Notes: generated by a model not told the origin, from the letters alone. A DNA stretch of 64,000 nt from Nitrososphaeria archaeon (GCA_029775915.1 JARVKA010000001.1:98594-162593), one strand, 5' to 3'; shown: positions 35,561-59,988, numbered from the stretch's first letter. A program made the numbers and translations.

Positions 35561-38500
35561 TTAAGACTTTCTTATCTCTAAAATCTCTTGGTAAAGATTT
35601 TTTAAGACTTCATTATAGTCAACTTTTCCTTGCTCTACTAAATCCATTAATCTTTCAAGTTCTCTTGTCGTTTCTTCACAAGTGTACTTTCCAAAATTTT
35701 GATTCAAATACATGTAAACTTTGAAGCCTAAAGGTGTGCTAAAAAGTCTATTCTCACGTTCAATTATGTATCCTCTTTCTAAAATTGTGAGTATTGTTTT
35801 TGCATATGTACTCGGTCTTCCTATAGCTTTCTCACGCATCAAAGCTACCACTTCACCTTGAATGAAAGGTTTAGCCGCTGGTAAGTAAAGAAGCTTTGCG
35901 AATTTCAATGTGTACTCACCTCCTTCTACAGGTTTTTTTAATTTTATTGGCAAGACTTTATTGAAACCTTCATTTATTATACTAACTGGATTCTCAACAA
36001 ATATTTGATTACTATTAATTAAAACTTTGAATTTTTGGTATAAAATTAGTGCTTCTTTCATTTGACTTGCAATGAATCGTTTAAATATTAATTCATATAG
36101 TTGGAAATGATCTTTAGTGAGTATTTTTGGAAATCGTAAAAATGAAATTGCAGTCTTTAACCTTTCTACATCTATCGCTCTTGTTGGTCTTATACACTCA
36201 TGAGCACCTTCCATAAAGTATCTTCGTGGTGAGAAAAGATTCGGATATTTCTCTTGGATGTATTCTTTAGCTATGTTTATACCCATTGTAGAAACGGTTG
36301 TTGCATCAGTTCTATGGTATGTACACAAACCCATTTCAAAAAGATCTTGAGCGATTTTCATTGTTTTAGTGGCTGAAAAACCAAGTTTTATTGAAGCATC
36401 ACGGATTAACATGTCCGTAGTGTAAGGTGGAGGTGGATAAATTGTTCGTTCTTCATTTTCTAAACTCTCTATTTTGGCTTTGAGATCTTTTAGTTGAAGT
36501 GGGTATTTGAAATTCGGATTTTCAATTAAAACCTTTAAACCATTTGAAAGTATAGCTGAAAGAACTTGCTTTTTCCTTCTCGATTCTTTAGTGCGTTCTA
36601 TTATCCAACCTAAAACTGGTGTTTGAACTCTTCCAGCTGAAAGTTTATGGTTTTGGAAACGTTGCCAAAGCTTTTGACTTAATTCAAACCCTATCCATCG
36701 ATCTTCTATGCGACGTATAACTTGTGCTTTTACCATTTCAATGTTTATTACTCTTCTTTCTTTTATAGCTTGAAGGAAAGCCTTCTTTGTTATTTCATGA
36801 AACTCTAACCTTTCAATACGTTTATTTAAAGGGTAAAGTGAGCAATAAACATCATAAGCGATTTTTTCTCCCTCAATATCGGGATCTGTAGCGACAAAAA
36901 TTGTGTTAACTTCAAGAGCGATTTTTCTCATAGCTTTGATTAACTCTTTCTTAGAGTAGTATTGTTGAGCTTTACATTTTGGACAATAATCAAGCCCTGT
37001 GAATTGATCTCCACATTTTTGACATTTTTTAATGAAGTCATATATTGGTACAAAATAATCTTTCTCAACTTTCACACCATGGAAACCTTCATCCAAAACA
37101 AGATCGTAAATATGTCCCATACTCGCTACAATATTAAGTACAAACTCACCAGCATTCACTTCAAAAACAGTTATATTTCCAACTTTTCTTTTGAAAAGTT
37201 TTCCGAAAAATTTTGAAATCGTTCTTGCCTTTGTTGGAGATTCAACGATTAACAAAGCTGTCTTAATAAAATCTTTTAATCTCTTTGAAATTTTTCCTTC
37301 TTTGATATTTCGAATAATTTCCCGATCTTGATCTATACCTTTAAACCATCTCTCAACATCCCTTAGATTAAACTTTATTGGTAAGAATTCACCAAGTATG
37401 AATTTTAACCTCTCCTTAAGTGAGTAAAATGCTTTTTCATCATCAATTATAATAAAGCTTGCACCTCTAGTTATACCACCAGCAAACATTCTAGAAGTTC
37501 TTCCCGAAGCTTGAACATAAGCTATAGGATCTACTACAACCAAAAAGAATTCACCTTCTTTCTGAATTAAGGAAACCTCTTTGCTACTTGATATTTTCCC
37601 AAAAACCTTAGGAGTTATGGCTTTCTTTAAAAAACTTTGAGTATCTAAAATGATTTTTCTAACAAATTCATCAAAACCTTCTAACTGAATTCCTTTTTCT
37701 AATGCATCTTTAACTTTTTCAACAGTTTGTTTACTTATTGGTAAGATTTTGCGGAGAGTATTAATTCTTTGACTTGCTTCGTCTTGAGCTTTTGGTTCGA
37801 GAAACTCCCTAATATTCTTAAGAAGAGTGAGAAGCTTAACTGGATTATACTCTTCCCAACTCAATCGAATTTCAATTCTTGGAATTCCTGTAAAAATCAC
37901 ATAACGAATTCTTTCTGGAAGATCTATACCCCTTGCTAATGGACTTCGGAAACTTGCAACCCCTATAAGTACCTCATACTCACCTTTCTCAAACTTCTCT
38001 AACATCTCCTCCTCATCCATTTTCACATAAGGGTAAGCTTTAACACCATTAGCATTCAAAAACTCACTAAGTTTTAATATGTACTCTTTACCTAAAACTG
38101 AAGGAACAAAAATAAGACATCCGCTACCAAACTTCTTGATAAGAGATAAAACTTGTTCTTTCATCTCTTGTTTAGACTCAATGTAATAATCCTTGATATT
38201 TCTTAAAAATTCAGGCTTAAATCCTATTTGGAAGTTTAAAAGCTCTTCAAAAAGTTTTATTCGCTTGGTTCTCTTTGCTTTAACAGTTGCTCCAGAAACT
38301 ACAAGAAGGCCTATTTTATTTTGACATTTATACTCATTAATTTGATTCCGCAAACTTTCCAACTTCTCAAGAATTGATTGATAAGATTCTCCCATTCTTT
38401 TCAAACGGCTAACTTCTTTTCTTAACTCTATTATTTGGAAAGCTAAATTTATTATCTCATCACTAAAACCTAAAATCTTCATAATTTTATCTATATTCTT

Positions 38501-39193
38501 TGGGGACTTGAGAAATGAATCGACATCATCTACAAAAACAAAGTCAAAATTCTTATATTGAATGATATCAAAATGATTAATTAGAAACCTTTCAGTCGTT
38601 ACCAAAATTTCAAAGTCTTCTTCTTCAACCCTTTTTAAAATCTCTTTCTTCTTACTCTCACTTATTCCAGCGTGATAACATATTATTTTAGGCTCGAAAC
38701 CAATTCTTTTTGAGTAAATATTAATTTTCTCTTCGACTTGTTGAACAAGAAGTGCAGTTGGCACTATAATGTAACTTTTTTTACCATTAACCACAAAGTA
38801 TAAAGCTGAAACTATTCCTAAGACAGTTTTCCCAACACCTGTAGGCGCTACTATTGAAAAACTTCTGTTTAAAAGGATTCTTCTAACCCATGTTTCTTGG
38901 AGGGACCACATTCTTTGCCCAACAACTTTTTTAAAAAATGAAGAAAAATCATTAAATTTTTTATAAAAGTTAAAAATGTCTTCAGCAAAATAAAGCTTAC
39001 CTCTCTCTTTTAAAACTTTTAAAAGTTCCTCTTGACTTTTTATATCCTCAATTTTTTCAATGCAATTTTCACATACTCCAAATTGGAGCAATCTTTCATT
39101 TGATATTATGCCTTCACAATTAATGCATAAACTATGGTAAATACTTCGAATCATCAACTCTTCAACTCTAATGAATAAGGTTTTATAAATCAA
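35561..39193 (-). CDS. rgy: Reverse gyrase
   Basis: 1210 aa. N-terminal zinc finger, helicase motifs APTGVGKT and VDDVD, Toprim ESPTKA and DPDIEGEKIA, and a topoisomerase IA active-site region (YHRTDA). Confidence 0.95.
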   Translation of the reverse strand: MIYKTLFIRVEELMIRSIYHSLCINCEGIISNERLLQFGVCENCIEKIEDIKSQEELLKVLKERGKLYFAEDIFNFYKKFNDFSSFFKKVVGQRMWSLQETWVRRILLNRSFSIVAPTGVGKTVLGIVSALYFVVNGKKSYIIVPTALLVQQVEEKINIYSKRIGFEPKIICYHAGISESKKKEILKRVEEEDFEILVTTERFLINHFDIIQYKNFDFVFVDDVDSFLKSPKNIDKIMKILGFSDEIINLAFQIIELRKEVSRLKRMGESYQSILEKLESLRNQINEYKCQNKIGLLVVSGATVKAKRTKRIKLFEELLNFQIGFKPEFLRNIKDYYIESKQEMKEQVLSLIKKFGSGCLIFVPSVLGKEYILKLSEFLNANGVKAYPYVKMDEEEMLEKFEKGEYEVLIGVASFRSPLARGIDLPERIRYVIFTGIPRIEIRLSWEEYNPVKLLTLLKNIREFLEPKAQDEASQRINTLRKILPISKQTVEKVKDALEKGIQLEGFDEFVRKIILDTQSFLKKAITPKVFGKISSSKEVSLIQKEGEFFLVVVDPIAYVQASGRTSRMFAGGITRGASFIIIDDEKAFYSLKERLKFILGEFLPIKFNLRDVERWFKGIDQDREIIRNIKEGKISKRLKDFIKTALLIVESPTKARTISKFFGKLFKRKVGNITVFEVNAGEFVLNIVASMGHIYDLVLDEGFHGVKVEKDYFVPIYDFIKKCQKCGDQFTGLDYCPKCKAQQYYSKKELIKAMRKIALEVNTIFVATDPDIEGEKIAYDVYCSLYPLNKRIERLEFHEITKKAFLQAIKERRVINIEMVKAQVIRRIEDRWIGFELSQKLWQRFQNHKLSAGRVQTPVLGWIIERTKESRRKKQVLSAILSNGLKVLIENPNFKYPLQLKDLKAKIESLENEERTIYPPPPYTTDMLIRDASIKLGFSATKTMKIAQDLFEMGLCTYHRTDATTVSTMGINIAKEYIQEKYPNLFSPRRYFMEGAHECIRPTRAIDVERLKTAISFLRFPKILTKDHFQLYELIFKRFIASQMKEALILYQKFKVLINSNQIFVENPVSIINEGFNKVLPIKLKKPVEGGEYTLKFAKLLYLPAAKPFIQGEVVALMREKAIGRPSTYAKTILTILERGYIIERENRLFSTPLGFKVYMYLNQNFGKYTCEETTRELERLMDLVEQGKVDYNEVLKNLYQEILEIRKS

Positions 39194-48232: not shown

Positions 48233-49363
48233 ATGCATAATCGACAAGCCTCAACTTTTAATCATTCAGGGAAATTCGAATCTCCAAATTACGTTAGAAC
48301 AAGTTTAGCTGGTGCGATGATGTTAGGCTTTATACAAGGTCGCTTTTATCGTGATGCGAAATCATATTGCTTAAACCTCTTATTAACTTACAATGATGGT
48401 TGTATTGGTAAATGTGCATATTGTGGACTCTCACGTTCCCGCTCAATTAATGAGCCATGGTTTAAAAAGAGCTTTATAAGAGTGGATTGGCCAATAGTTA
48501 ATCTTGAAGATGTGATTGAAAGAATTCACACAGCTACTTGTGATTTAGAACGTGTTTGTATATCTATGATAACTAACGGTAGAGCAAAATCTGATACTTT
48601 AACTATTGTAAAGAGAATTAGAAGTGTATTCGATCAAATTTCTGTTCTTATAACTCCAACAATTGTGGATAAGGCTTGGTTAGAAGAGGTTAAGGATTTA
48701 GGTGCAGATATGATTGGTGTAGCTATTGATGCTGCAACAAAAAATCTCTTTGATAAGCTTAGAGGTAAAAATGTTGGCGCTCCTCATCGATGGGAACAAT
48801 ATTGGAGCATTTTAAAATCTGCTATAGATATTTTTGGTAAATTCAATGTAGGCATACACTTAATAGTTGGTTTAGGCGAAACTGAGCGTGAGATGGTAAT
48901 GACGATTCAACGTGCTTACGATATGGGTGCTTTAACACATCTTTTCTCATTCTTCCCTGAAGAAGGCTCACCTATGGAGCACCATCCACAACCACCAATA
49001 GGCTCCTATAGGCGTATACAATTGGCAAGATATTTAATTAATAACTCTCTTACTAGAGTTGATAAAATGTTATTCGATTATAAAGGTAGAATTGTAAATT
49101 TTGGCTTGGATGATAAAGAAGTTGAAAGATTCATAAATTCGGGAGAACCATTTATGACATCAGGTTGTAGAAGTAAGAATCGTGAAAATGCATGTAATAG
49201 ACCATACTCAAACTCAACACCATATCAAGCCTTAATAGGAGAGATAAGAAATTATCCTTTTAAACCCGAGCCAAAAGATATTGAGATAATACGATTACAA
49301 CTTTTTGATTATTCTGATATACCAGTTAAAAAATGGATTGACACACCTTACTTAATAGAGTGA
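48233..49363 (+). CDS. Radical SAM protein, LipS1/LipS2-type lipoyl synthase component
   Basis: CxxxCxxC motif CIGKCAYCG. 376 aa. First gene of a radical SAM / radical SAM / LplA / GGR-like cassette; which of LipS1 or LipS2 it is cannot be decided by eye. Confidence 0.6.
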   Translation: MHNRQASTFNHSGKFESPNYVRTSLAGAMMLGFIQGRFYRDAKSYCLNLLLTYNDGCIGKCAYCGLSRSRSINEPWFKKSFIRVDWPIVNLEDVIERIHTATCDLERVCISMITNGRAKSDTLTIVKRIRSVFDQISVLITPTIVDKAWLEEVKDLGADMIGVAIDAATKNLFDKLRGKNVGAPHRWEQYWSILKSAIDIFGKFNVGIHLIVGLGETEREMVMTIQRAYDMGALTHLFSFFPEEGSPMEHHPQPPIGSYRRIQLARYLINNSLTRVDKMLFDYKGRIVNFGLDDKEVERFINSGEPFMTSGCRSKNRENACNRPYSNSTPYQALIGEIRNYPFKPEPKDIEIIRLQLFDYSDIPVKKWIDTPYLIE

Positions 49364-49367
49364 TTAA

Positions 49368-50378
49368 ATGATGCATATACTTGATTATTGCTTTCATCAA
49401 CCTTTTACCAATCTTAAACACTTATTCAATAAAGCATCAGAAATCTTAAAGCGCAACTTTAATGGTAAAATCTTCTTTTACATACCGAGTATGGTAAGAT
49501 ATGAAACTAACTATTATAAATTTAATAAGCGAGCATTTCCAGCGATATCTGTAACAGGTAAAAAGTGCCTTCTTAATTGTGATCATTGTGGAGGAAAACT
49601 TCTTGAGAGTATGATTCCAGCTGAAAAGCCAGAAGAGGTTTATGATATATTAAGAAAGATTTATGAGAATGGTGGGAAAGGTTGTTTAATAAGCGGGGGT
49701 TGTAATCTTGAGGGCTACGTTCCTCTCGAACCTTTTTTACCTATAATAGCGAGGGCTAAACGTGAGATGGATTTAGAGATAGTTATGCATACAGGTTTAA
49801 TTCCACTAGAGATGATAAATGTGCTAATTGATACTAACGTAGATGCTATACTTCTTGATATAATCGGCTCTGAACTCACTCTCAAAAAAGTATGCCATCT
49901 TGAAAAAAAGATAGAAGCATTTGAAAGTTTACTTAAAGCACTTAATAATAAACGATTATCAGTAGTTCCACACATTGTAGTTGGTATGCATTATGGTAAA
50001 ATGTTAGGTGAGTTAATAGCTTTAGATTTAATTTCACGTTATAAGCCTGCTGCAGTTGTGATAGTAGCCTTTATGCCAATTGAAAGTACTAAAATGGCAA
50101 ATATTCAACCACCATCTCCACAAGATATAAGTAGAGTTATGCTTGCTGCTAGATTTTTATTACCATCTACACCCATTGTATTGGGATGTGCTAGACCAAG
50201 AGGTAATCATAGAATAACTACGGATGCTTTAGCGATTAAATGTGGTTTAAATGGTATCGCTTATCCTACTGAGGCTGCTTTTATTATTTGTGAAAATTTA
50301 GGTTATAATACGGTAATTTTTGATAAATGTTGTAGTCTCATTTGGAAGGATATTACTAAATTGAGTCATAAAATATGA
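49368..50378 (+). CDS. Radical SAM protein, LipS1/LipS2-type lipoyl synthase component
   Basis: CxxxCxxC motif CLLNCDHCGG. 336 aa. Starts 4 nt after the previous gene, and its stop overlaps the lplA start. Confidence 0.6.
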   Translation: MMHILDYCFHQPFTNLKHLFNKASEILKRNFNGKIFFYIPSMVRYETNYYKFNKRAFPAISVTGKKCLLNCDHCGGKLLESMIPAEKPEEVYDILRKIYENGGKGCLISGGCNLEGYVPLEPFLPIIARAKREMDLEIVMHTGLIPLEMINVLIDTNVDAILLDIIGSELTLKKVCHLEKKIEAFESLLKALNNKRLSVVPHIVVGMHYGKMLGELIALDLISRYKPAAVVIVAFMPIESTKMANIQPPSPQDISRVMLAARFLLPSTPIVLGCARPRGNHRITTDALAIKCGLNGIAYPTEAAFIICENLGYNTVIFDKCCSLIWKDITKLSHKI

Positions 50379-51976
50379 AATCATTTTGGAGAGTTCTTGA
50401 TACAGGTTTTAAAAGTGCAGCAGAGAATATGGCTTTAGATGATGTAATCTTAGATTGTAAAGCTATGGAATTAATCCCAAATACAATTCGCTTTTTACGC
50501 TTCAAGCCACCATGTGTACTTATAGGGTATCATCAAGATGTTGAACATGAAGTAAGATTGGATTATGTTAAAGCTAACAATATAGATGTTAATAGAAGAA
50601 TTACAGGTGGAGGTGCTATTTACTTTGATGAGAACACAATAGGTTGGGAGATTTTTGCATCTAAGTCTTCCATAGAAGATTGTAATAAAATTGAGGATTT
50701 ATTTGAAATTATGTGTAAAGCGCCTATTAAGGCACTTAGAAAGATTGGAATAAATGCAACATTTAGACCAAAAAATGATATAGAAGTAAATGGTAGAAAA
50801 ATCTCAGGGACTGGTGGTACAGAGAGAGGTTGTGCTTTTTTATTTCAAGGCACTTTATTAACTGATTTTGATATAGAGTCGATGATTAAATCGCTTAGAA
50901 TACCTATTGTAAAGCTGAAGGATAAAGGGATACAGTCAGTTAAGCAAAGAATCACATGTGTGAAATGGGAATTGGGTTATACATTAACTTATGAAGAATT
51001 TAAGCGTTTACTTATTGAATGTTTCGAAGAAACATTCAATATTGAATTAATTGAAGGTGGTTTATCTGAAAAAGAAGAGCGTTTATTATCAGAGAGACTC
51101 CCATACTTTCAATCGCCAGAATGGCTTTATTTAGATCGTCGAGCACCTGAAGAGAGTGGTATAGTTAGAGCTATCGATAAAACAAAAGGTGGATTGATTG
51201 AGGTTACGCTATCATTAGATAAAAGGGCAAAAGTTATTAAATCTATACTTATCACGGGAGATTTTTTTGTCACGCCAGCGAGGGGGATACTCGATTTGGA
51301 AGCTGCACTTAAATTTAGTAGCTACGATGAAGAATCTATTAAAAAGATAGTTACATCAACCTTCAAAAGGTATAATATACAAATAGTTGGGATAGAGCCA
51401 CAAACCATTATCAACTTAATACTTGAAGCTATTAATAAAATGAGATATGAAGAGCTAGGTATAAGCTTAGAGGAAGCTAACAGTATTTACTCTCTTACAA
51501 AAGATCTTTCAAGTCTTTTGAATGGGAATTGTAAATATCTTCTTCTTCCATACTGCTCTAAACTCCTAAGTTGTTCATTACGCAAAGAGGAGGGTTGTTC
51601 ATTATGTGGATTGTGTAGCGTTGGTGAGGCATACAAACTTGGACAAGAAGCTGGCCTTATAGTTAAAACTATACAAAACTTTGAGCATTTAATGGAAACA
51701 TTAAAAGAGATAAAAAAATCAAACTCAAGTTACATAGGTTGTTGTTGTGAAGCATTCTATATAAAGCATTTAGATGATCTTCGAGAAACAAAAGTTCCAG
51801 CTTTACTTATAGATATAGATGATAAAACTTGCTACGATCTTGGTAAAGAGGATGAAGCTTATAAAGGCTCTTTTGAAGGCCAAACAACCTTAAAGTTAGA
51901 CTTATTAAAAAAGCTCATTGAAGCTATAAGATTTAAAGATCATTTTCAAAATAAAGAGAGTGTTCAACTTTCATGA
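50375..51976 (+). CDS. lplA: Lipoate-protein ligase (LplA catalytic + LplB-like accessory domain) fused to a Cys-rich C-terminal domain
   Basis: BPL/LPL catalytic pattern (..LRFKPPCVLIGYHQ.., lipoyl-AMP lysine motif NGRKISGTGG). About 150 extra C-terminal residues carry CSLCGLCSVGEAY and GCCCEAFY. Confidence 0.75.
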   Translation: MKSFWRVLDTGFKSAAENMALDDVILDCKAMELIPNTIRFLRFKPPCVLIGYHQDVEHEVRLDYVKANNIDVNRRITGGGAIYFDENTIGWEIFASKSSIEDCNKIEDLFEIMCKAPIKALRKIGINATFRPKNDIEVNGRKISGTGGTERGCAFLFQGTLLTDFDIESMIKSLRIPIVKLKDKGIQSVKQRITCVKWELGYTLTYEEFKRLLIECFEETFNIELIEGGLSEKEERLLSERLPYFQSPEWLYLDRRAPEESGIVRAIDKTKGGLIEVTLSLDKRAKVIKSILITGDFFVTPARGILDLEAALKFSSYDEESIKKIVTSTFKRYNIQIVGIEPQTIINLILEAINKMRYEELGISLEEANSIYSLTKDLSSLLNGNCKYLLLPYCSKLLSCSLRKEEGCSLCGLCSVGEAYKLGQEAGLIVKTIQNFEHLMETLKEIKKSNSSYIGCCCEAFYIKHLDDLRETKVPALLIDIDDKTCYDLGKEDEAYKGSFEGQTTLKLDLLKKLIEAIRFKDHFQNKESVQLS

Positions 51977-53040
51977 GTGTTGATTATGATGTAATTATCG
52001 TAGGTGCAGGTCCAGCTGGCTCATCTGCAGCTATAAGTTGTGCTAAAGTAAATTCCAAAACACTACTTATTGAACGTAGTTTTTTTGGTAGGCATAAACC
52101 TTGTGGCGGTATTTTACCACCAATTACCCTTTACATCTTTGATGAGTTAGGGATAAATATACCTTCAAAAGTTTTTTGCAATCCTAAAAGCCTTAAGCTA
52201 TTTTACATACCTCCAAGTGGCAAGTTGAATGGAGGAGCTTTAAAATGTTACAAACTTCTCAATATTAATAGAGATTTATTTGATAAATGGTTGGTTGAAG
52301 AGGCTTTAAATAAGGGTGTTGACTTTCAAACAAACTCAACTGTAATATCATTTAAACAAGATGATGATAATGTGGAGGTAAAGTTAAGGTGCCGTGATGA
52401 AAATATAAGAGTAACTGCTAAATATTTACTTGCAGCAGATGGTACTCATTCAATTATAAGAAAGTGCTTTGAAGGGGCTTATCAAAAATTTTTAATCATA
52501 ATGCAAGAATATTGGAAGTGTGAGGGCGAGTTTGAAGATTGTTTTTATACCATTTTAAGTAAAAGAATAACACCAACTTATGGTTATGTTGTGCCGAAGG
52601 ATAACGCCATATTAATTGGAAGTGGTGCTAAAGACTTAAAACAAAGTATTCAAAGTTTAGAGAACTTAAAGAATTGGTTGAAAGAGGAATTTAAATTCAA
52701 GCCCCAATCTTTAATTAAAAGGGAAATTGGTTTTATACCATACGATAAATGTTTTATCGGAATGGGTCGAGTTATACTATTAGGTGACGCTGCAGGTTTT
52801 TGCAATAAATTCTCTGGTGAAGGTGTAAGATTCGCACTTGAAAGCGGATTGATAGCATCAAAAGCGATAGAGGAAGCTGAGAATAAGGGTGTTCAAGTTT
52901 CTGAAGCATACGCTAAGAAAGTTCAACCTTTATTAGAATTTATAGAGAAGACTAAAAGTATCATCAATATAGATACTGATAAGTGGAGAGAAGAGTTCGT
53001 CTTAAATGAACTTAAGCGCTTGAATATTTGGCAAAGATAA
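51973..53040 (+). CDS. Geranylgeranyl-reductase-like FAD-dependent oxidoreductase (LipT-like)
   Basis: FAD motif DVIIVGAGPAGSSAA, and GDAAGF near the C-terminus. 355 aa. The 4-nt start/stop overlap with lplA indicates co-translation. Confidence 0.65.
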   Translation: MSVDYDVIIVGAGPAGSSAAISCAKVNSKTLLIERSFFGRHKPCGGILPPITLYIFDELGINIPSKVFCNPKSLKLFYIPPSGKLNGGALKCYKLLNINRDLFDKWLVEEALNKGVDFQTNSTVISFKQDDDNVEVKLRCRDENIRVTAKYLLAADGTHSIIRKCFEGAYQKFLIIMQEYWKCEGEFEDCFYTILSKRITPTYGYVVPKDNAILIGSGAKDLKQSIQSLENLKNWLKEEFKFKPQSLIKREIGFIPYDKCFIGMGRVILLGDAAGFCNKFSGEGVRFALESGLIASKAIEEAENKGVQVSEAYAKKVQPLLEFIEKTKSIINIDTDKWREEFVLNELKRLNIWQR

Positions 53041-53128: not shown

Positions 53129-53449
53129 ATGGAGATAATGGGAAAGGAAGTTTTATGGATTAGGAATGAGGGGCTAAGCATGAAAACGGTTATACGAGTG
53201 GGCATTACAGAACGCCTCACGAATATTCTTAATTCTATTAAAGCTATTCGATTATTATCAGAGGGTAGGTGTGTGAATGAAGATTTCCCATTCGCTTTAA
53301 TCGAGTATGGTAAACGTAAAATACTTTTAAAAAGCCCTATCTCTGGATTTATTCTTGAGGTTAATAAAGAGGTTTTGAAGAACCCACAATTGATTAATAA
53401 CGATCCTTATGGTAAAGGTTGGCTCGCTTTAATAAAACCTACACCTTAG
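53129..53449 (+). CDS. Minimal GcvH-like lipoyl-carrier protein (LbpA-like)
   Basis: 106 aa. IEYGKRKILLKSPISG has the lysine 8 residues before P-x-SG, as in the H-protein ESVKA..P-x-SG segment. C-terminal NNDPYGKGWL. Lacks the usual N- and C-terminal extensions. Confidence 0.65.
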   Translation: MEIMGKEVLWIRNEGLSMKTVIRVGITERLTNILNSIKAIRLLSEGRCVNEDFPFALIEYGKRKILLKSPISGFILEVNKEVLKNPQLINNDPYGKGWLALIKPTP

Positions 53450-54301
53450 GTGTTTAAATTGGTTGAATTACCAATAGTGATTGCTTCCGCATTCTTCACG
53501 ATTGGTACGATTATATTTATAATTGGCGTATTATTGAATTTGAGGATTTGGTTACTCGGTTCAGAGAGCATTATTGGGACCTTTAAAGAAGTCATATCAA
53601 CTCTCATAAACCCAAAGTTTTGGTCCACAATTCTTAAAACATTTATAACAAAAATTTTCGGCCAATATAAGCTTTACAAAATCGATAATTTAAGAGGGAT
53701 TGAAAAATGTTGCTTTGTAACTTTTTATGTGTTAGTCATACTTGCAAATCATATAGCAGCTGATATAGCGAGTGGTGCTAAAACATTAACAGAATTTATT
53801 ATAGAGTTTTTCAAATCACCATTCTTTCCAGGTTATATATTCTCCGAGTTAGGTGCTGAATTAAATGGTTTTTGGATAGCATTTCTCTTTATTGATAATT
53901 TCGCAATGGTAATGGTATTTCTCTCAGAAGGTTTAGTGATGTATAGAAGATTTATTAAAAAATATTTTATATTCGCCACAAAAGAGGATGTAATCGGCTT
54001 ACTATTACCAGTAATTTGGTTTATCTTTCGTTGGATCGCTGAAGCAGCAACTATTGTAAAGTTTGGTACACCATCTGGTAGTCATTATATGTTTATAGCT
54101 TACTTAATCTCAAGACCACTTACATTACTTACACCAAATCAAGTTGAGATTCTTTATAGTATTATGTGGCCGGCTTCAGGCTTCTTCCTTAGTCTTTTCT
54201 TTGGTTTAATACCCTATACTGGCAGGTTATGGCATGCTTTCGCTGGACCTATAACTATGTTACTTAACTCTGTACCATACAAAAAGGAGGTATTGAGGTA
54301 A
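53450..54301 (+). CDS. Polytopic membrane protein, NarI/HdrE/DsrM-like (putative cytochrome b quinone-interacting subunit)
   Basis: 283 aa with about 6 TM segments. C-terminal GRLWHAFAGP resembles the NarI-family R-L-x-H-x-x-x-x-P motif, and further His residues lie in TM segments (ANHIAAD, GSHYMF). The GTG start abuts the stop of the GcvH-like gene, and its stop overlaps the next start (TAATG). Confidence 0.5.
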   Translation: MFKLVELPIVIASAFFTIGTIIFIIGVLLNLRIWLLGSESIIGTFKEVISTLINPKFWSTILKTFITKIFGQYKLYKIDNLRGIEKCCFVTFYVLVILANHIAADIASGAKTLTEFIIEFFKSPFFPGYIFSELGAELNGFWIAFLFIDNFAMVMVFLSEGLVMYRRFIKKYFIFATKEDVIGLLLPVIWFIFRWIAEAATIVKFGTPSGSHYMFIAYLISRPLTLLTPNQVEILYSIMWPASGFFLSLFFGLIPYTGRLWHAFAGPITMLLNSVPYKKEVLR

Positions 54302-55545
54302 TGAAACAAACTAAAATCCCACTTAGTGTGAAGCAATTAATAGAGTTAGATGGGTGTGCGAGATGTGAGTTATGTAGAGAATTTTGCTCATTATATGCGT
54401 TATTAAATGAAAACCCACACCCACTCAAATTCCCAACTAGTACTGTAGCTGTAATTAAACAATTTAGATCGATTTTACGGGATCAATTTGGATTAAAAGC
54501 GAAGCTATTAAGAAGTAAACCTAAGATTAAAGAAAAGTTATGGATGCTCGCTGATGCATTATTTTTATATTGTACAACTTGTGGTAGATGTAAAGTGGTA
54601 TGCCCACTCGGTATTGACACATGGTCTCTTTTAAACTCTGTAAGAGAATACTTTATGAATAATTTCACAAGCCAATATCCTACACATTGTGTTATAGATT
54701 TTATATCAAACACGATTAATACAACTATACAAAATTCAGGCAATATCTTTAATGTATCAAATGCATCACGTCATGATTGGGCTTTATACACAGGTGCTGA
54801 TATTCAAGTAAAGGATAATGCAAAAGTCGTATACTTTGTGGGTTGCGTATCTTCTTACCAAGGTAGAGCTCAAGATATAGCTCATGCGATAACAGCGATT
54901 CTCAATTCAGTGGGAGAAGATTGGACTTTATTAAAGGATGAATGGTGTTGTGGACACCCACTCACTATAAGTGGTGCTGGGAATAAAGCAAAGAGTATTG
55001 CAGAGCATAATTTAAGGATGATAAGGGATGTTGGAGCTAAAATGGTTATAACAGGATGTCCAGGGTGCTATTTAGCCCTTAAGCATGAATATCCAAAGAT
55101 TTTAGGTAAACCTGTAGAGTTTGAAGTATTGCACTTTACAGAACTCTTAAATATTTATCTTAATGAGGGAAAATTAAAACCAATAAAACTCGATGGGAAA
55201 GTAACTTATCATGATCCATGTGAATTGGGAAGGTTGGGTGGTGTTTTAAATGAGCCACGACGAATTATTAATACCTTTACTAATGGATTGTTAGAACCTT
55301 ATGGTTCAGGTATGGATGGTATATGTTGTGGTTCTGGGGGGTTGATAAAAGCTACAAATCCTTCATTGGCTGACTTACTTGCAATTAAAAGGTTAGATAT
55401 GCTTATGGAAACTAAATCGAAGTTAATACTTTCCGCATGCCCTACATGTGTACAAAGCTTAAGTAAGGTAGCTATGGATAAAAATAAGGAATTACGTGTT
55501 ATAGATTTAGCTGAGTTAGTTGCTCAACAACTGGGCTTGATATAA
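54301..55545 (+). CDS. HdrD/DsrK/GlcF-like Fe-S protein (two 4Fe-4S ferredoxin motifs + two CCG domains)
   Basis: CARCELCREFC and CTTCGRCKVVCP clusters. CCG motifs WCCGHP and CCGSGG, plus YHDPCELGR and SACPTC. 414 aa. Confidence 0.8.
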   Translation: MKQTKIPLSVKQLIELDGCARCELCREFCSLYALLNENPHPLKFPTSTVAVIKQFRSILRDQFGLKAKLLRSKPKIKEKLWMLADALFLYCTTCGRCKVVCPLGIDTWSLLNSVREYFMNNFTSQYPTHCVIDFISNTINTTIQNSGNIFNVSNASRHDWALYTGADIQVKDNAKVVYFVGCVSSYQGRAQDIAHAITAILNSVGEDWTLLKDEWCCGHPLTISGAGNKAKSIAEHNLRMIRDVGAKMVITGCPGCYLALKHEYPKILGKPVEFEVLHFTELLNIYLNEGKLKPIKLDGKVTYHDPCELGRLGGVLNEPRRIINTFTNGLLEPYGSGMDGICCGSGGLIKATNPSLADLLAIKRLDMLMETKSKLILSACPTCVQSLSKVAMDKNKELRVIDLAELVAQQLGLI

Positions 55546-55548
55546 AGT

Positions 55549-55980
55549 TTACGTTAATTTAAGCCTTTGTAACTCACTTTTAATAAACTCCTCAAGTTCT
55601 TTGAGATCAGATATTAAAGCCTTCTTATCTTCCTCAAAATTTGATGGTTGTATAACAGCTATCCATCCAGCCCCATAAGGGTCTTCATTAAGTAACTTAG
55701 GTTGACTCTTTAAATTCTCATTCACTTCTACAAGTGTTCCTGAGACTGGTGAGATTAATGGGCCGACCCACTTCCCCGTCTCTATTGTTCCTAAAGGCTT
55801 TCCTTTAACAACTAATTTACCTTTAGGCAAAAGTCGGATGAAAGTTATTGGCCCTGCCGATCTTTGAGCAACATCAGTTACTCCAACACGCACCTTTCCA
55901 TTCTCTAACTTAACCCACATATGGTCTTTTGAGTAATATAACCCTTCTTTAAACTCGAATTTTTCAAGTAACTTTACCAA
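55549..55980 (-). CDS. gcvH: Glycine-cleavage H-protein family lipoyl-carrier protein
   Basis: 143 aa. HMWVKLENGKVRVGVTD, lipoyl-lysine segment IETGKWVGPLISPVSG, and NEDPYGAGWI. Last gene of the glcD-glcE-glcF-like operon. Confidence 0.8.
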   Translation of the reverse strand: MVKLLEKFEFKEGLYYSKDHMWVKLENGKVRVGVTDVAQRSAGPITFIRLLPKGKLVVKGKPLGTIETGKWVGPLISPVSGTLVEVNENLKSQPKLLNEDPYGAGWIAVIQPSNFEEDKKALISDLKELEEFIKSELQRLKLT

Positions 55981-56059
55981 GTTTACCCCAAAAATTTTTC
56001 AACTTAATGGTTTATTAATTTTATGCATTCTTCTAAGAGTTTTTTATTATACAGTAATT

Positions 56060-57217
56060 TTACATTAAACCTAATCTTTGAGCGATGAGTTCTGCTATAT
56101 CAATTACTTGTAGAGCTTTATTCTTACGTGAGGTAGCATCAGCAAGGCTTTGATAACAAGTTGGACAAGCTGAGATTATAACCTCAGCACCTGTTTTAAT
56201 GAGCATTTCTAATCGCTTATTAGCTATACTCTCAGATAATTGTGAATCGGTAACTTTTAAAAGCCCCCCTCCGCCACAACAAAATCCTTCTTTACCACGC
56301 TCTATTGGTTCTACAAATTTATCACTTATAGATTTAATTACCCTTCTTGGCTCATTTATAATCCCTAAAATCCTTCCCAACTCACATGGATCGTGATAAG
56401 TTACTTTACTCTCAAATTTAGGTATTTTTAGCTTTCCTTTCTTTATATATTCGTCTAAAATTTGTGAAAAGTGTAAAACTTCGAAGTTAAGTTTTCGCCC
56501 CAATACCTCTGGATACTCTTTTTTTAACGCTAAGCAACAACCCGGACATCCGCTAACTACCTTCGTTGCACCAGTTTCCTCTATCATCTTTACGTTATGC
56601 TCTGCAACTTTTTTGAACTCTTTTGTAGCGCCTTCTAACTTTAATGGGTGTCCACAACACCATTCATCCTTTAATAAAGTCCAATCTTCTCCAACGTAAT
56701 TTAAGATTGATGCTATAGCTTGAGCGACTCCTTGTATCCTTCCAGAGTATGATGTGACACAACCAACAAAATATACCATATCGGCTTTATCTTTTATTGG
56801 AGCTTCAACGCCTGTATAAATTACCCAATCCTTTCTTAATGTGTTATCCATCATAAAGATATTCTTCGCATTATTTATAGTATTTACCAATTGCTCAGCC
56901 CCAAGAGGTACTGCATTTGCTTCAGCCATAATTTCACGAGTGATAAACATTATATCCGTATATTTTACTGCGGATGGACAAGCGATTTCACAATTCGCAC
57001 ACATAGTGCATTTATAAAGGTGATTCGCCACATCCTTAGCTATATCGATTCTTTTATCAACCATAGCTCTGGTTAAATAAAGCCTCCCTCTTGGTGAATC
57101 TGCCTCAATTCCTAATACTCTATAAGTTGGGCAACTTTGAAGGCAGAAGCCACAATGAACACAACGAAGAATTAATTTGTAATAATCGGATTGGTCGAGT
57201 TTATTAAATTTAGCCAA
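56060..57217 (-). CDS. glcF: GlcF/HdrD-like Fe-S subunit (two 4Fe-4S motifs + two CCG domains)
   Basis: CVHCGFCLQSCP, CTMCANCEIACP, WCCGHP, CCGGGG and SACPTC. Close paralog of 54301-55545 in the C-terminal two thirds. Confidence 0.8.
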   Translation of the reverse strand: MAKFNKLDQSDYYKLILRCVHCGFCLQSCPTYRVLGIEADSPRGRLYLTRAMVDKRIDIAKDVANHLYKCTMCANCEIACPSAVKYTDIMFITREIMAEANAVPLGAEQLVNTINNAKNIFMMDNTLRKDWVIYTGVEAPIKDKADMVYFVGCVTSYSGRIQGVAQAIASILNYVGEDWTLLKDEWCCGHPLKLEGATKEFKKVAEHNVKMIEETGATKVVSGCPGCCLALKKEYPEVLGRKLNFEVLHFSQILDEYIKKGKLKIPKFESKVTYHDPCELGRILGIINEPRRVIKSISDKFVEPIERGKEGFCCGGGGLLKVTDSQLSESIANKRLEMLIKTGAEVIISACPTCYQSLADATSRKNKALQVIDIAELIAQRLGLM

Positions 57218-57218
57218 A

Positions 57219-58571
57219 TCAAATCCCTCCTATAAATCTACCTGGATTCAATATCCCTTTCGGATCAAATCGATCTTTAATAGCCTTCATTAAGAAAAAG
57301 TCCTTTCTAATAGGTCCCCATACATCAACTTTTTCTTTAACACTTAATGGTGCGCATTCAACCACTAAACTACTCGCAGAGCCTATACTTAATACATAAG
57401 CTCTTAACTCTTCTATCGCTTTTACAAGCTCGTATGGATTTTCGGAATTAAAATAAGTATAAAGAATACCAAGCCCCAAATGGGCTGTTATAGAATATTG
57501 TAAAGCATATTTCTCAGAAATCTTTTGTGTAAAATCCATAACATCCCCAACTTTAGAGATTAAAGTACTGATCTTACATCTAATTGAGAACTTATTTGAT
57601 GATAAATTAGGATATTCTTGTATTTTCTTCCATAATGATTCATGCTCACTACCATTTATGGAGAATGCAGTTATTGAATCATGCTTCTTAACAATTTCTA
57701 ACAACTCAGAAATCCTTCTTCTCATACTATCTTTAGTTATGCTTAATACCTTTAAAGCTAGTAAATACCCCTTAGAGATATTCAAACTATTTAATATCTC
57801 ACATGAGTTAGGATCGAATCCTTCTATAGCTGAAGGCCCTATACCTATAGATGAGTGGCTTACCATTAATACTTCTTTATACGCTTTAACAAAATCGTTA
57901 ATTGAGTTAAATACTGCAAGAAAGCTTTCTTCAAACTCTGGTAAAGGTGCGAGTTTAAAAGTTACTTGAGTTATTACACCGAGTGTACCGATTGAACCTA
58001 TGTATAATTTCTTTATATCATAACCAGCTACATTTTTTACAACTTTTCCACCAAACTTCGTTAAAGTCCCGTCAGAGTTTGCTACTTTAATACCCAACAA
58101 AAGATCTCTTACCCCGCCGTAAAGATGGCGTATAGGTCCAAAAGAATTTGAGGCAACTACACCTCCTAATGTAGCTAATGATGAGTATGGTGGATCTAAT
58201 GGTAAAAATTGACCTTTATTAACTAAAACTTTTTGAAGTTCATCTAAAATAATTCCTCCTTCAGCTGTAACTACAAGTTCTTCTGGCAAATACTCAATTA
58301 TTTTATTCAACCTTTTGAGTAAAAGTATTATATCTACCCTTTTAGGTATATTACCTAAACTCATCATAGTCCCCCCTCCCCAAGGTATAATTGAAATACC
58401 CTCATCATTCGCTCTCTTTAAAATCTCAGCTACTTCCTCCATCGATTTTGGAATAACTACAGCTTTTGGTTTAAGACCATCAACTTCGAACTTTTCAACT
58501 TCCTCACTAGTAAGCGCTTCTGAATTTGAGATTACACGATTTATTGCTAACTCTGAATTTTTATTTGACAT
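57219..58571 (-). CDS. glcE: FAD-binding PCMH-type oxidase subunit, GlcE-like
   Basis: 450 aa. FAD-binding segment IIPWGGGT. C-terminal ..DPKGILNPGRF typical of FAD-linked oxidases. Confidence 0.7.
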   Translation of the reverse strand: MSNKNSELAINRVISNSEALTSEEVEKFEVDGLKPKAVVIPKSMEEVAEILKRANDEGISIIPWGGGTMMSLGNIPKRVDIILLLKRLNKIIEYLPEELVVTAEGGIILDELQKVLVNKGQFLPLDPPYSSLATLGGVVASNSFGPIRHLYGGVRDLLLGIKVANSDGTLTKFGGKVVKNVAGYDIKKLYIGSIGTLGVITQVTFKLAPLPEFEESFLAVFNSINDFVKAYKEVLMVSHSSIGIGPSAIEGFDPNSCEILNSLNISKGYLLALKVLSITKDSMRRRISELLEIVKKHDSITAFSINGSEHESLWKKIQEYPNLSSNKFSIRCKISTLISKVGDVMDFTQKISEKYALQYSITAHLGLGILYTYFNSENPYELVKAIEELRAYVLSIGSASSLVVECAPLSVKEKVDVWGPIRKDFFLMKAIKDRFDPKGILNPGRFIGGI

Positions 58572-58581
58572 ATAAAAAACC

Positions 58582-59988
58582 TCACGAAGCTAAAATCTTT
58601 ACCTCCTTTTCAGGGAAAATCTTACCAGGATTGCATAAGCCTTTAGGATCGAAGATTTCTTTGATAAAGAGCATACGCTTCAATTCATCTTTACTATATT
58701 GTACGGGCATTAACTCAGCTTTTTCAATACCTACTCCATGCTCGCCAGTAATCGTCCCACCAACATCTAAACATAATTTGAGAATATCAAGGCCTAATTT
58801 CAAAGCCTCTTGCTCCTTACCCTCAACTCTTGGATCGTAAAGAATTATAGGATGAAGATTCCCCTCTCCAGCATGAAATACATTAGCGATCATGAAACCA
58901 TGCTCCTCGCCCCACTTTCTTATAATAGGCATAACTTCAGGGAGTTTGGATCTAGGTATTGTACCATCATCAACTACATAACTAGGTGCAAGATTGCCCA
59001 TAGATCCGAAAGCTGCTTTACGACCAGCCATTAACTTAGCCATGCCATCAGGATCCTTCGCCATCTCTACACTACGTGCATGATTCTTCTTACAAATCTC
59101 TATAATCTTCTCACTTTGCACATCTAACTCATCTTCAAACCCATCAACTTCGAATAGTAAGATCGCTTCTGCATCTAAAGGCAAGCCACAAGCTTTAACA
59201 CCAGATTCAACAGCCTTAATAGCATACTTATCCATGAATTCTATAACAGCTGGAAGCTTACCTACTGCTATAACTTCAGAAACGGTATTTGACGCATCTA
59301 CCAAAGAGTCGAATATTGCTAGAATAACCGCAGTAGCTGGTGGTTTACGTAAAATCCTTACAACAGCTTTTGTTACTATACCTAAAGTCCCTTCAGAACC
59401 TACCATAAGTCCAACTAAATCGTAGCCTGGTGGATCGAGTGCTTTTCCACCCAATTCTAAAACATCTCCATTAGGTAAAACCATTTCTAATCCCAATACA
59501 TGATTCGTTGTAACACCATATTTGAGGCAATGATTTCCTCCAGCATTATGAGCTATATTACCACCTATGCTCGATACTGTATAGCTTGCAGGATCTGGAG
59601 CGTAAAAGAAGCCCTTTTCCGATGCAACTGCGGTTATTTGTGGTGCAGTAACATAAGGCTCAACAACAACCCTTTGATTATCAAAATCAACTTCTAAGAT
59701 GCTATTCATTCTTGCAAATGCAATAACAACCCCTCCCCTTATTGGTACAGCGCTACCACTTAACGCAGTCCCAGCACCCCTCGCTAAGTATGGAATATTG
59801 TATTTATTACAAATATTTACAATATTCACAACTTCATCCCTTGAGGTTGGTAAAACTACAACATCGGGCATACTTTTGAAGAATGTTTGACCATCACATT
59901 CATATACCATAAGCTCTTCTTTTTTACGAAGTAAACGATCAATACCTACAATACTCTCTAACTCTTTTAAAATATGATCACTAATCAT
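58582..59988 (-). CDS. glcD: FAD-linked oxidase, GlcD / D-lactate dehydrogenase-like
   Basis: 468 aa. RGAGTALSG FAD motif, GEHGVG, and C-terminal DPKGLCNPGK. Confidence 0.85.
   Translation of the reverse strand: MISDHILKELESIVGIDRLLRKKEELMVYECDGQTFFKSMPDVVVLPTSRDEVVNIVNICNKYNIPYLARGAGTALSGSAVPIRGGVVIAFARMNSILEVDFDNQRVVVEPYVTAPQITAVASEKGFFYAPDPASYTVSSIGGNIAHNAGGNHCLKYGVTTNHVLGLEMVLPNGDVLELGGKALDPPGYDLVGLMVGSEGTLGIVTKAVVRILRKPPATAVILAIFDSLVDASNTVSEVIAVGKLPAVIEFMDKYAIKAVESGVKACGLPLDAEAILLFEVDGFEDELDVQSEKIIEICKKNHARSVEMAKDPDGMAKLMAGRKAAFGSMGNLAPSYVVDDGTIPRSKLPEVMPIIRKWGEEHGFMIANVFHAGEGNLHPIILYDPRVEGKEQEALKLGLDILKLCLDVGGTITGEHGVGIEKAELMPVQYSKDELKRMLFIKEIFDPKGLCNPGKIFPEKEVKILAS

Follow-up and report, generated by a model that had tools for sequence, protein, structure and literature searches.

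A predicted one-heme cytochrome b and an HdrD-like CCG protein encoded among H-protein and lipoate-assembly genes: a candidate membrane-bound lipoyl-protein oxidoreductase of a Nitrososphaeria archaeon

Many non-methanogenic archaea and bacteria carry Hdr-type enzymes, the physiological disulfide of which has long been sought. A 64,000-nucleotide stretch of DNA from a Nitrososphaeria archaeon (GCA_029775915.1, JARVKA010000001.1:98594-162593; hereafter the window) raises this question within a three-gene unit at positions 53129-55545, which encodes a small H-protein-like protein, a polytopic membrane protein and an HdrD-like CCG protein. We asked what kind of enzyme the membrane and CCG proteins form and whether the lipoyl arm of an H-protein could be the disulfide on which it acts. 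Our data indicate that the two proteins very likely form one membrane-bound oxidoreductase. We propose, tentatively, that its substrate would be the lipoyl arm of a canonical H-protein (GcvH) encoded immediately downstream on the other strand and not that of the small protein within the unit. The three genes are as follows.

53129-53449, plus strand: short H-protein-like protein, 106 amino acids (Pfam GCV_H, PF01597, E = 1.6e-21).
53450-54301, plus strand: polytopic membrane subunit, 283 amino acids, GTG start; predicted divergent NarI-superfamily cytochrome b.
54301-55545, plus strand: HdrD-like cytoplasmic CCG subunit, 414 amino acids (Pfam CCG, 7.6e-30; Fer4_8).

A first-pass annotation of the window had described three open reading frames with abutting or overlapping stop and start codons, and all of its coordinates hold. 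The TAG of the 106-residue gene (53447-53449) abuts the GTG of the membrane gene (53450-53452), and the membrane and CCG genes overlap by 1 bp in a TAATG (54299-54303). An alternative TTG start of the membrane gene at 53459 (MVELPIVIAS...) fits the N-termini of orthologues (MIEDPINIAA, MVLDAIFFAS) slightly better than the GTG at 53450. If the gene begins at this TTG, the abutting TAG-GTG becomes a 9-nt gap.

The 414-residue protein contains two ferredoxin-type CxxCxxCxxxC motifs, at residues 19 and 91, and two complete CCG motifs, C-x33-CC-x35-CxxC (residues 182-256, with WCCGHP) and C-x34-CC-x36-CxxC (residues 307-383, with CCGSGG). Both pairs had been listed in the first-pass annotation. Together they make up the motif set of the HdrD/HdrB type, namely two CxxCxxCxxxC and two complete CX31-39CCX35-36CXXC, and all ten cysteines of the two HdrB noncubane clusters (8rvv_B) align in the protein. 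The best sequence match in the PDB was EtfD (E = 3.6e-33), followed by HdrB (5e-7), a ranking biased by the fact that HdrD has no structure. However, where EtfD has C-T, with Thr in place of the second Cys of the first CC, and C-P-H-C, the 414-residue protein has CC and CPGC. In EtfD these residues give a linear [3Fe-4S] cluster and a His-ligated, non-catalytic cluster (PMC13083937). None of the NCBIfam curated cutoffs was reached by the 414-residue protein, which gave partial matches to TfrB, LdhH, GlpC, DsrK, HmcF and TmcB, and the curated HdrB and HdrC cutoffs were missed by the window proteins. Judged from these motifs, the protein resembles the catalytic Hdr type in its ligand set and EMO (ETF:(methyl)menaquinone oxidoreductase), the family of EtfD, in its overall architecture. 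Because both CCG motifs are complete, unlike those of EtfD/EMO, we infer that the noncubane site would carry out thiol/disulfide chemistry and would not serve as a wire only.

The 283-residue protein has about 5-6 hydrophobic helices. Pfam and NCBIfam scans of this protein gave no match, and a PDB sequence search with the profile of its family returned noise only. The family is tiny, with 16 clusters at 90% identity, all from Nitrososphaerota-type metagenome-assembled genomes (MAGs) or metagenomes. An exhaustive profile search with this family recovered 38 representatives. The closer matches include fusions of 673-696 residues in which the N-terminal ~270 residues correspond to the membrane protein and the C-terminal part to a ferredoxin and two CCG domains. 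The distant matches carry Pfam Nitrate_red_gam (NarI, PF02665), some of them fused to multiheme cytochromes c. When the enlarged membrane family was compared with NarI-like proteins by hhalign, the two aligned over 242 columns with 99.9% probability (E = 5e-33). Against three near-identical NarI neighbours the probability had been 1.35%, both alignments being shallow, and it reached 99.9% after distant members were added on both sides.

The first-pass annotation had called the membrane protein NarI/HdrE-like and pointed to a C-terminal R-L-W-H-x4-P motif. This motif is present and invariant in the family (R259-L-W-H262-A-F-A-G-P267), and the call is right at the superfamily level. However, the protein does not belong with the two-heme members, and its closest characterised relative is EtfD/EMO. 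The two-heme arrangement of NarI, HdrE and DsrM uses four His on helices II and V. A canonical NarI-type neighbour encoded in relatives has these four (H94, H104, H213, H231) together with a C-terminal PFSKLFHxxxSP, which corresponds to YTGRLWHAFAGP in the 283-residue protein, whereas H101 and H262 are the only histidines invariant in the membrane family. The EtfD of M. smegmatis has five helices; His78/His241 ligate its only heme b, which is the proximal one, and menaquinone lies 4-5 A from it (PMC13083937). The EMO of Syntrophus aciditrophicus binds heme bP on His87/His251 and has an additional distal His233, and mono-heme EMO forms have been interpreted as carrying out uncoupled electron transfer to menaquinone (preprint 10.64898/2026.08.18.745454). 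The distal His, which is conserved across EMOs, is missing in the window protein. A Foldseek search with an AlphaFold model of the 283-residue protein placed M. smegmatis EtfD (9ojn) at the top with probability 0.98 and also listed NarI; given the low confidence of the model, we took this result only as support for the sequence evidence. These observations suggest that the 283-residue protein is a divergent member of the NarI-superfamily cytochromes b in which the proximal heme site alone is left, with one predicted heme b on H101 and H262.

In all related loci that we examined (L001-L006, L008-L021) the CCG gene comes after the membrane gene, and in more distant relatives the two are fused in one polypeptide. 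Since such fused homologues exist, the membrane and CCG proteins very likely form one complex, and this is the part of our reading, together with the architecture of the two subunits, in which we have high confidence. When 185,579 species representatives were scanned with the close-family alignment, a sample that leaves the fused or distant forms outside, the membrane gene was present in 8. These are three Ca. Terraquivivens species (Wolframiiraptoraceae), Ca. Scotarchaeum otlingeri (Geothermarchaeales) and four MAGs, of which two are labelled Nitrososphaeria-type, one Nitrosopumilales and one uncultured archaeon. The membrane/CCG part of the triplet is thus conserved in the related loci examined, but the short H-like gene is missing upstream of it in several genomes.

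The architecture of HdrED or DsrMK that the first-pass annotation had proposed for the pair is supported by the NarI homology (hhalign 99.9%) and by the HdrB/HdrD cysteine set. Each of the known systems is matched in part. In EtfD/EMO, too, a NarI-type five-helix membrane domain is joined to a cytoplasmic module, which contains two CCG domains along with two cubane clusters. Among PDB entries EtfD matches best in both sequence and fold, and the fused relatives of the window pair have its one-polypeptide layout. Unlike EtfD, the window version is split in two genes, has no etfAB nearby (ETF domains were found neither among the window open reading frames scanned nor in any related locus), and has H-protein paralogues and lipoate-assembly genes as its conserved neighbours. 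HdrDE of Methanosarcina, compared here without HdrD/HdrE sequences, likewise has separate genes for its NarI-like cytochrome b and for its HdrD, the latter with complete catalytic CCG motifs, and it links a membrane electron carrier (methanophenazine) to a disulfide. However, HdrE has more His ligands and binds several hemes (preprint 10.64898/2026.08.18.745454), the substrate of HdrDE is CoM-S-S-CoB, and no methanogenesis genes are present at the window locus. DsrMK of sulfate reducers and sulfur oxidisers, like HmcEF and TmcBC, also pairs a NarI-like membrane subunit with an HdrD-like CCG protein, DsrMK acts on the DsrC disulfide/trisulfide, and the NCBIfam families DsrK, HmcF and TmcB are among the matches of the 414-residue protein. 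In contrast, its DsrK score (86 against 400 bits) is far below the cutoff, DsrM has two hemes, no dsrC or dsrAB is found nearby, and relatives have, beside this unit, a separate and more canonical NarI plus HdrD pair with all four His.

If the complex acts on a lipoyl disulfide, which protein carries it? The first-pass annotation had proposed the 106-residue protein. Its statement about the sequence holds, with K62 in EYGK and P70 (P-I-S-G) at +8, and the protein scores 76.9 bits against the 22.2-bit cutoff of GCV_H (profile positions 9-101 of 122). However, it is below all NCBIfam GcvH cutoffs (PRK01202, 66.2 against 117 bits; TIGR00527, 51.9 against 115.85 bits) and is shortened at both ends relative to its orthologues. 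A second H-protein is encoded convergently with the CCG gene, 3 bp from the CCG stop.

55549-55980, minus strand: canonical GcvH, 143 amino acids, with the lipoyl lysine in ETGKW (Pfam GCV_H, 9.6e-39; NCBIfam PRK01202, 126 bits, above the 117-bit cutoff).

We aligned the H-like proteins of all related loci, and three classes separated. The long class (142-148 residues), which includes the 143-residue window protein, has E-[T/S]-G-K-W with the lysine in 11 of 11 members. The short class, encoded upstream of the membrane gene, has R in the lysine column in all 8 syntenic orthologues, and the Scotarchaeum member has no lysine anywhere in the hairpin. This class has an invariant Cys in G-R-C-[V/I]-N (C48, GRCVN, in the window copy). 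The third class has M or R in the lysine column and no conserved Cys. Its members, of 128-133 residues, are always encoded directly upstream of a FAD_binding_4 oxidase and a GlcF-like CCG protein, and they are labelled 'glycine cleavage system protein H' in public records. Examples of this second lysine-less class are the following.

L001 13311-13712; L006 16910-17296; L013 11611-12009; L017 6911-7309; L019 15412-15807; and others.

With the short-class profile, a search of the whole database recovered 27 clusters of the lysine-less classes, of which 26 have R, M, T or V in the lysine column; K occurs only in the window copy. In several genomes that have the membrane/CCG pair without the short gene, a long GcvH lies convergent just downstream. 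Since relatives of the lysine-less classes have R, M, T or V and the pair occurs without the short gene, the best reading of K62 is a conservative change from R to K within a family independent of lipoylation. The 106-residue protein is thus an unlikely lipoyl carrier, and we consider it fairly probable that it is not the essential one. The lysine is invariant only in the long GcvH, and by this pattern the 143-residue protein is likely to be the lipoyl carrier. Each lysine-less class goes with a single CCG paralogue, and for this reason the short lysine-less H-like proteins probably bind CCG proteins as non-lipoylated accessory subunits. This lysine-less H-protein family is a new and unexplained object, and it warns against annotation of its members as 'glycine cleavage system protein H'.

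Directly upstream of the triplet and on the same strand are four lipoate-assembly genes.

48233-49363, plus strand: LipS2-like radical SAM lipoyl synthase subunit (Pfam Radical_SAM; best match NCBIfam LipS2, 234.5 bits, below the 270-bit cutoff).
49368-50378, plus strand: LipS1 lipoyl synthase subunit (NCBIfam LipS1, 232.8 bits, above the 230-bit cutoff).
50375-51976, plus strand: lipoate/octanoate-protein ligase (LplA catalytic domain plus LplB-like C-terminal domain) fused to DUF116 (Pfam LplA-B_cat, 4.8e-48; Lip_prot_lig_C; DUF116).
51973-53040, plus strand: LipT-like flavoprotein of the geranylgeranyl-reductase family (NCBIfam GG-red-SF, 166.8 bits, above cutoff).

These genes are separated by 4-bp gaps or overlaps, and a gap of 88 bp lies between them and the triplet. 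TATA-like AT-rich strings within this gap, before 53129, are indistinguishable from background at 33% G+C. Orthologues of the LipS2-like protein, 71-72% identical, occur in the same islands of relatives. The ligase-DUF116 fusion, with a cysteine-rich DUF116 at its C-terminus, is kept across related islands at 513-533 residues (for example at the ends of L001, L005, L012 and L013, and at L024 15337-16878). The set sLpl(AB), LipS1/S2 and LipT was described by the Dahl laboratory (PMC10332631, PMC11094781), and we took the role name LipT from the second of these papers.

On the other side of the triplet, the 143-residue GcvH gene is the last of a minus-strand operon in the order glcD-like, glcE-like, glcF-like and gcvH.

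56060-57217, minus strand: GlcF-like CCG iron-sulfur protein with two complete CCG motifs (Pfam, NCBIfam).
57219-58571, minus strand: GlcE-like FAD-binding subunit (Pfam FAD_binding_4, FAD-oxidase_C; NCBIfam GlcE, 172 bits, below cutoff).
58582-59988, minus strand: GlcD-like FAD-linked 2-hydroxyacid dehydrogenase subunit (Pfam FAD-oxidase_C, 8.1e-59, and FAD_binding_4; NCBIfam glcD, 476 bits, below the 568-bit cutoff).

The GlcF-like protein is a paralogue of the 414-residue protein (45% identity). Compared with it, the 414-residue protein has an insertion of ~29 residues between the ferredoxin motifs (window 54385-54555, residues ~30-85), which from its position may be a docking element for the membrane subunit. 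A 2-hydroxyacid dehydrogenase in one operon with an H-protein (55549-59988) is unusual. Relatives have, instead of glcDEF-gcvH, a single FAD subunit of 475-495 residues with a lysine-less H-like gene before it. Domains of GcvP and GcvT were found neither among the window open reading frames scanned nor in the 10-kb flanks of related loci, and a role in glycine cleavage was set aside as the main explanation, gcvP and gcvT not being nearby.

In the 8 species representatives and in many MAG and metagenome contigs the membrane/CCG pair lies in a conserved island. The island contains hdrCBA-mvhDGA(-hycI), hyp genes and a canonical NarI plus HdrD pair; one to three further H-protein genes and lipoate-assembly genes; a FAD_binding_4 oxidase with a GlcF-like CCG protein and sometimes another CCG protein; and an AbrB/PhoU-like gene and OsmC. 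A long GcvH is beside the pair or within a few kb of it in essentially all loci, and in most of them it is directly adjacent. Four CCG paralogues, closely related to one another and each combined with its own kind of electron module, occur in the island, which argues for a common thiol/disulfide substrate. We also examined fused homologues from four other lineages, and three of the four keep the association with lipoyl carriers or lipoate assembly. In L007, an unrelated archaeal MAG, the order is OsmC, the fusion, GcvH and LplA, and HdrABC lies alongside. In a deltaproteobacterial MAG an H-like gene, whose product lacks the lysine, is directly upstream of the fusion. In L024 the fusion is preceded by TusA, DsrE and DsrH and followed by GcvH, LplA, a CCG protein, a second GcvH and lipoate-assembly genes. 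The fourth, L023, has no lipoyl or lipoate-assembly neighbours. The functional link of the pair to lipoyl carriers, which the first-pass annotation had drawn, and to lipoate assembly is strongly supported by these conserved neighbourhoods.

The region around the fused homologue of L024 (3499-18073) has two TusA copies, DsrE, DsrH-like genes and a sulfite-reductase-like gene, as well as two lysine-bearing GcvH/LbpA-like genes, two ligases, LipS genes and LipT. Here the sHdr-LbpA system of sulfur oxidation may have a membrane-bound equivalent.

Taken together, 53450-55545 would encode a two-subunit membrane oxidoreductase of the HdrDE, EMO (EtfD) or DsrMK kind. The 283-residue cytochrome b would hold one proximal, cytoplasm-side heme on H101 and H262, and the 414-residue subunit would sit on its cytoplasmic face. 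Electrons would pass between the noncubane site, the cubane clusters (2x[4Fe-4S], 2x noncubane in all), heme b and a membrane carrier, presumably a menaquinone-type quinone bound near the heme. From homology, we consider a quinone somewhat probable as the membrane partner. Since there would be only one, proximal heme, the reaction is expected to be non-electrogenic. The substrate would be the lipoyl/dihydrolipoyl arm of the 143-residue GcvH, lipoylated by the upstream LipS2-LipS1-Lpl(AB)-LipT machinery. This assignment of the substrate, drawn from co-location and the complete CCG motifs, is put forward as a serious possibility that falls a little short of probable. A menaquinone-type quinone has a potential of about -0.07 V. 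The E0' of lipoamide is -0.29 V (PMC6067878), and the thermodynamically easy direction would be from dihydrolipoyl-GcvH to quinone. In relatives one carrier would connect the complex with HdrABC-MvhADG, the FAD-oxidase/CCG dehydrogenases and OsmC, and in the window the GlcDEF-like enzyme would use the 143-residue GcvH as well. With glycolate or lactate as the donor, lipoyl-GcvH would have to be reduced against the potential gradient. The 106-residue protein, with its one invariant cysteine, would not be lipoylated and would most likely assist the CCG protein as an accessory or docking subunit.

Several observations weigh against this proposal. The gene of the 143-residue GcvH closes the glcDEF-like operon, and its product could be a partner of the GlcDEF-like enzyme alone. 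No OsmC, HdrABC, Mvh or second NarI pair was found within the 64 kb of the window. Binding of heme and quinone is predicted from two histidines and homology, the AlphaFold model of the membrane protein is of low confidence (predicted local distance difference test score, pLDDT, of 62), and the Foldseek E-value of its EtfD match is weak (0.25). The window copy of the 106-residue protein has K62, and in this organism it might be lipoylated. Complete CCG motifs also occur in enzymes not known for disulfides (GlcF, GlpC, LutA). In EtfD, the nearest solved relative, the CCG clusters serve purely as a wire (PMC13083937). The window complex could likewise be a pure wire, with its CCG clusters only conducting electrons from a docked protein donor to heme and quinone and the H-like proteins acting as structural adaptors; possible donors are the GlcDEF-like dehydrogenase, some other flavoprotein, or a redox protein that the H-like subunit would recruit. 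In favour of a wire, no solved homologue is nearer than EtfD in sequence or fold, and noncubane-type clusters transfer electrons in both EMO structures (PMC13083937; preprint 10.64898/2026.08.18.745454). The partnership of GlcF-like paralogues with FAD dehydrogenases is also consistent with a wire, as is the fact that lysine-less H-like proteins cannot carry lipoate. However, both CCG motifs have the complete HdrB cysteine set, which is partly lost in EMOs, no etfAB genes are nearby in any locus, and a wire leaves unexplained the co-location with lysine-bearing GcvH and lipoate ligase, including in fused homologues of other phyla. We regard a pure wire as unlikely. The version given in the first-pass annotation, in which K62 of the 106-residue protein bears the lipoamide arm that the membrane/CCG complex uses as its disulfide substrate, as a quinone-linked replacement of E3, fits the canonical position of K62 with P at +8, the abutting codons directly upstream of the membrane gene, and the ligase and LipS1/S2 genes directly upstream. 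It is made improbable by the residues in the lysine column of 26 of the 27 nearest clusters, by the lack of K in the syntenic orthologues and of any lysine in the Scotarchaeum hairpin, by the genomes that have the pair without the short gene, and by the low curated GcvH scores and shortened ends.

Two further explanations were considered. Lipoyl-GcvH might reduce an OsmC/Ohr-type peroxidase and be re-reduced by Hdr-like enzymes including the membrane complex, which resembles the OsmC/H-protein/L-protein peroxide detoxification of Trichomonas hydrogenosomes. OsmC adjoins the long GcvH or the membrane/HdrD unit in most related loci and is directly upstream of the fusion in L007, and the existence of Ohr/OsmC peroxidases that depend on lipoyl groups is established (Cussiol 2010; Nyvltova 2016; both cited in PMC10332631). 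However, in addition to the lack of OsmC in the window, reduction of a lipoyl disulfide (-290 mV) by a menaquinol-type donor is strongly uphill, and the one-heme subunit has no obvious coupling to the membrane potential. Such an antioxidant function, which we think quite unlikely, addresses the physiological role and not the enzyme chemistry; it could coexist with oxidation of dihydrolipoyl-GcvH by the membrane complex, with HdrABC-Mvh as the reductase. Alternatively, as in sHdr-LbpA or DsrMK-DsrC, the substrate could be a protein-bound persulfide, trisulfide or mixed disulfide carried on the invariant Cys of the short H-like protein, on the lipoyl arm or on both, with electrons from sulfane-sulfur oxidation passing to the quinone pool. 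The short family has lost the lysine and kept the invariant Cys (GRC[V/I]N), and L024 places the fusion amid TusA, DsrE, DsrH, a sulfite-reductase-like gene, GcvH and lipoate-assembly genes. DsrK, an HdrD-type CCG protein, acts on the protein DsrC. The lipoate-assembly set is that linked to sHdr-LbpA (PMC10332631, PMC11094781). In contrast, TusA, DsrE and rhodanese genes were not found in the window or in the Nitrososphaerota/Geothermarchaeales islands, the neighbouring Hdr of those islands is of the methanogen type, with a 659-residue HdrA and the MvhDGA hydrogenase, and is not sHdr, and a single cysteine cannot form an intramolecular disulfide. Together with the missing LbpA cysteines (PMC6067878), these points make sulfur trafficking very unlikely.

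This also bears on the analogy to LbpA and sHdr that the first-pass annotation had made, which fails. The likeness is real in that the same lipoate-assembly set lies directly upstream on the same strand (48233-53040) and that genes for H-protein-like proteins accompany those for Hdr-like CCG proteins; in type II sHdr clusters, LbpA, EtfAB and EMO occur together (PMC11094781). LbpA has a strictly conserved lysine and two conserved cysteines near its N- and C-termini (PMC6067878). The short H-like protein of the window belongs to a family without the lysine and with one mid-sequence Cys, and the 143-residue protein has the lysine and no cysteine. An sHdrA-type set (shdrC1B1AHC2B2 or type II) and TusA, DsrE and Rhd are lacking in the window and its close relatives, only the distant L024 having TusA and DsrE, and the neighbouring Hdr of relatives is HdrABC-MvhADG. 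Membership of the locus in the sHdr-LbpA system was rejected on the missing cysteines and on the lack of an sHdr gene set and of sulfurtransferases in the window.

A precedent for lipoyl-GcvH as an Hdr substrate comes from Culexarchaeia, for which GcvH was suggested as the carrier of an unknown Hdr disulfide (Kohtz et al. 2022, PMC9723716). As here, a non-methanogenic TACK archaeon encodes HdrB/HdrABC-Mvh with GcvH, and the lipoyl disulfide is a possible Hdr substrate. However, the partner in the Culexarchaeia Ehe cluster is a membrane [NiFe]-hydrogenase-HdrBC complex and not a cytochrome b with HdrD, and neither lysine-less H-like paralogues nor a lipoate-assembly linkage is described there. 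In full-text literature searches we found no description of the three-gene unit, and none of the island in the Wolframiiraptoraceae and Caldarchaeales papers. The first-pass annotation was likewise not aware of a description of the unit, but the idea of lipoyl-GcvH as an Hdr disulfide had already been proposed.

The locus offers a concrete candidate for an Hdr substrate, a lipoylated 143-residue H-protein encoded with lipoate-assembly genes and several CCG enzymes, and the membrane complex is compact and easy to express. If the proposal is true, the roles of lipoate would extend past 2-oxoacid and glycine metabolism and sHdr sulfur oxidation, and a quinone-linked alternative to the E3 dihydrolipoamide dehydrogenase would be defined. 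EMO/EtfD, HdrDE and DsrMK would then be linked through a form with catalytic CCG sites on a one-heme anchor. We can also extend the proposal, although this wider version is doubtful. In it, a lipoylated H-protein would replace CoM-S-S-CoB as the dithiol/disulfide carrier in thermophilic, non-methanogenic Nitrososphaerota and Geothermarchaeales; HdrABC-MvhADG and the FAD-oxidase/CCG enzymes would turn it over in the cytoplasm, one-heme and two-heme HdrDE-like complexes would exchange its electrons with quinone, and lysine-less, cysteine-bearing H-derivatives would be docking or regulatory subunits of the CCG enzymes. If true, such a system would amount to a 'heterodisulfide' cycle built on a protein, with a cofactor-assembly operon of its own.

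Two further gene families recur in the islands of relatives. An OsmC-family (peroxiredoxin-like) gene adjoins the long GcvH or the membrane/HdrD unit. A gene for an AbrB/SpoVT (MazE_antitoxin Pfam) plus PhoU-like protein of ~350-368 residues is kept, often in two copies, and may encode a regulator.

OsmC-family genes: L001 16879-17334; L007 3332-3820; L008 12545-13066; L013 8789-9235.
OsmC-family genes, continued: L016 5534-5995; L017 4009-4536; L019 12594-13037.
AbrB/PhoU-like genes: L001 12088-13179 and 17370-18443; L008 14235-15341; L011 2234-3292.

In L021 (10001-11733) the membrane gene is matched in part only and the partner CCG gene is broken into three open reading frames, which could be a pseudogene or an assembly or sequencing error. 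The host of the window, a hot-spring archaeon, is a hyperthermophile, since the window encodes a reverse gyrase together with archaeal ribosomal and transcription proteins. The reverse gyrase (35561-39193, minus strand) has 1210 residues with helicase plus topoisomerase IA parts, and the G+C content of the window is 33%. Unrelated to the finding, the window also encodes a radical SAM protein with an HMPTM-type N-terminal zinc ribbon (11182-12708, minus strand) and an 887-residue DUF11-repeat protein (8495-11158, plus strand), which is likely a surface protein.

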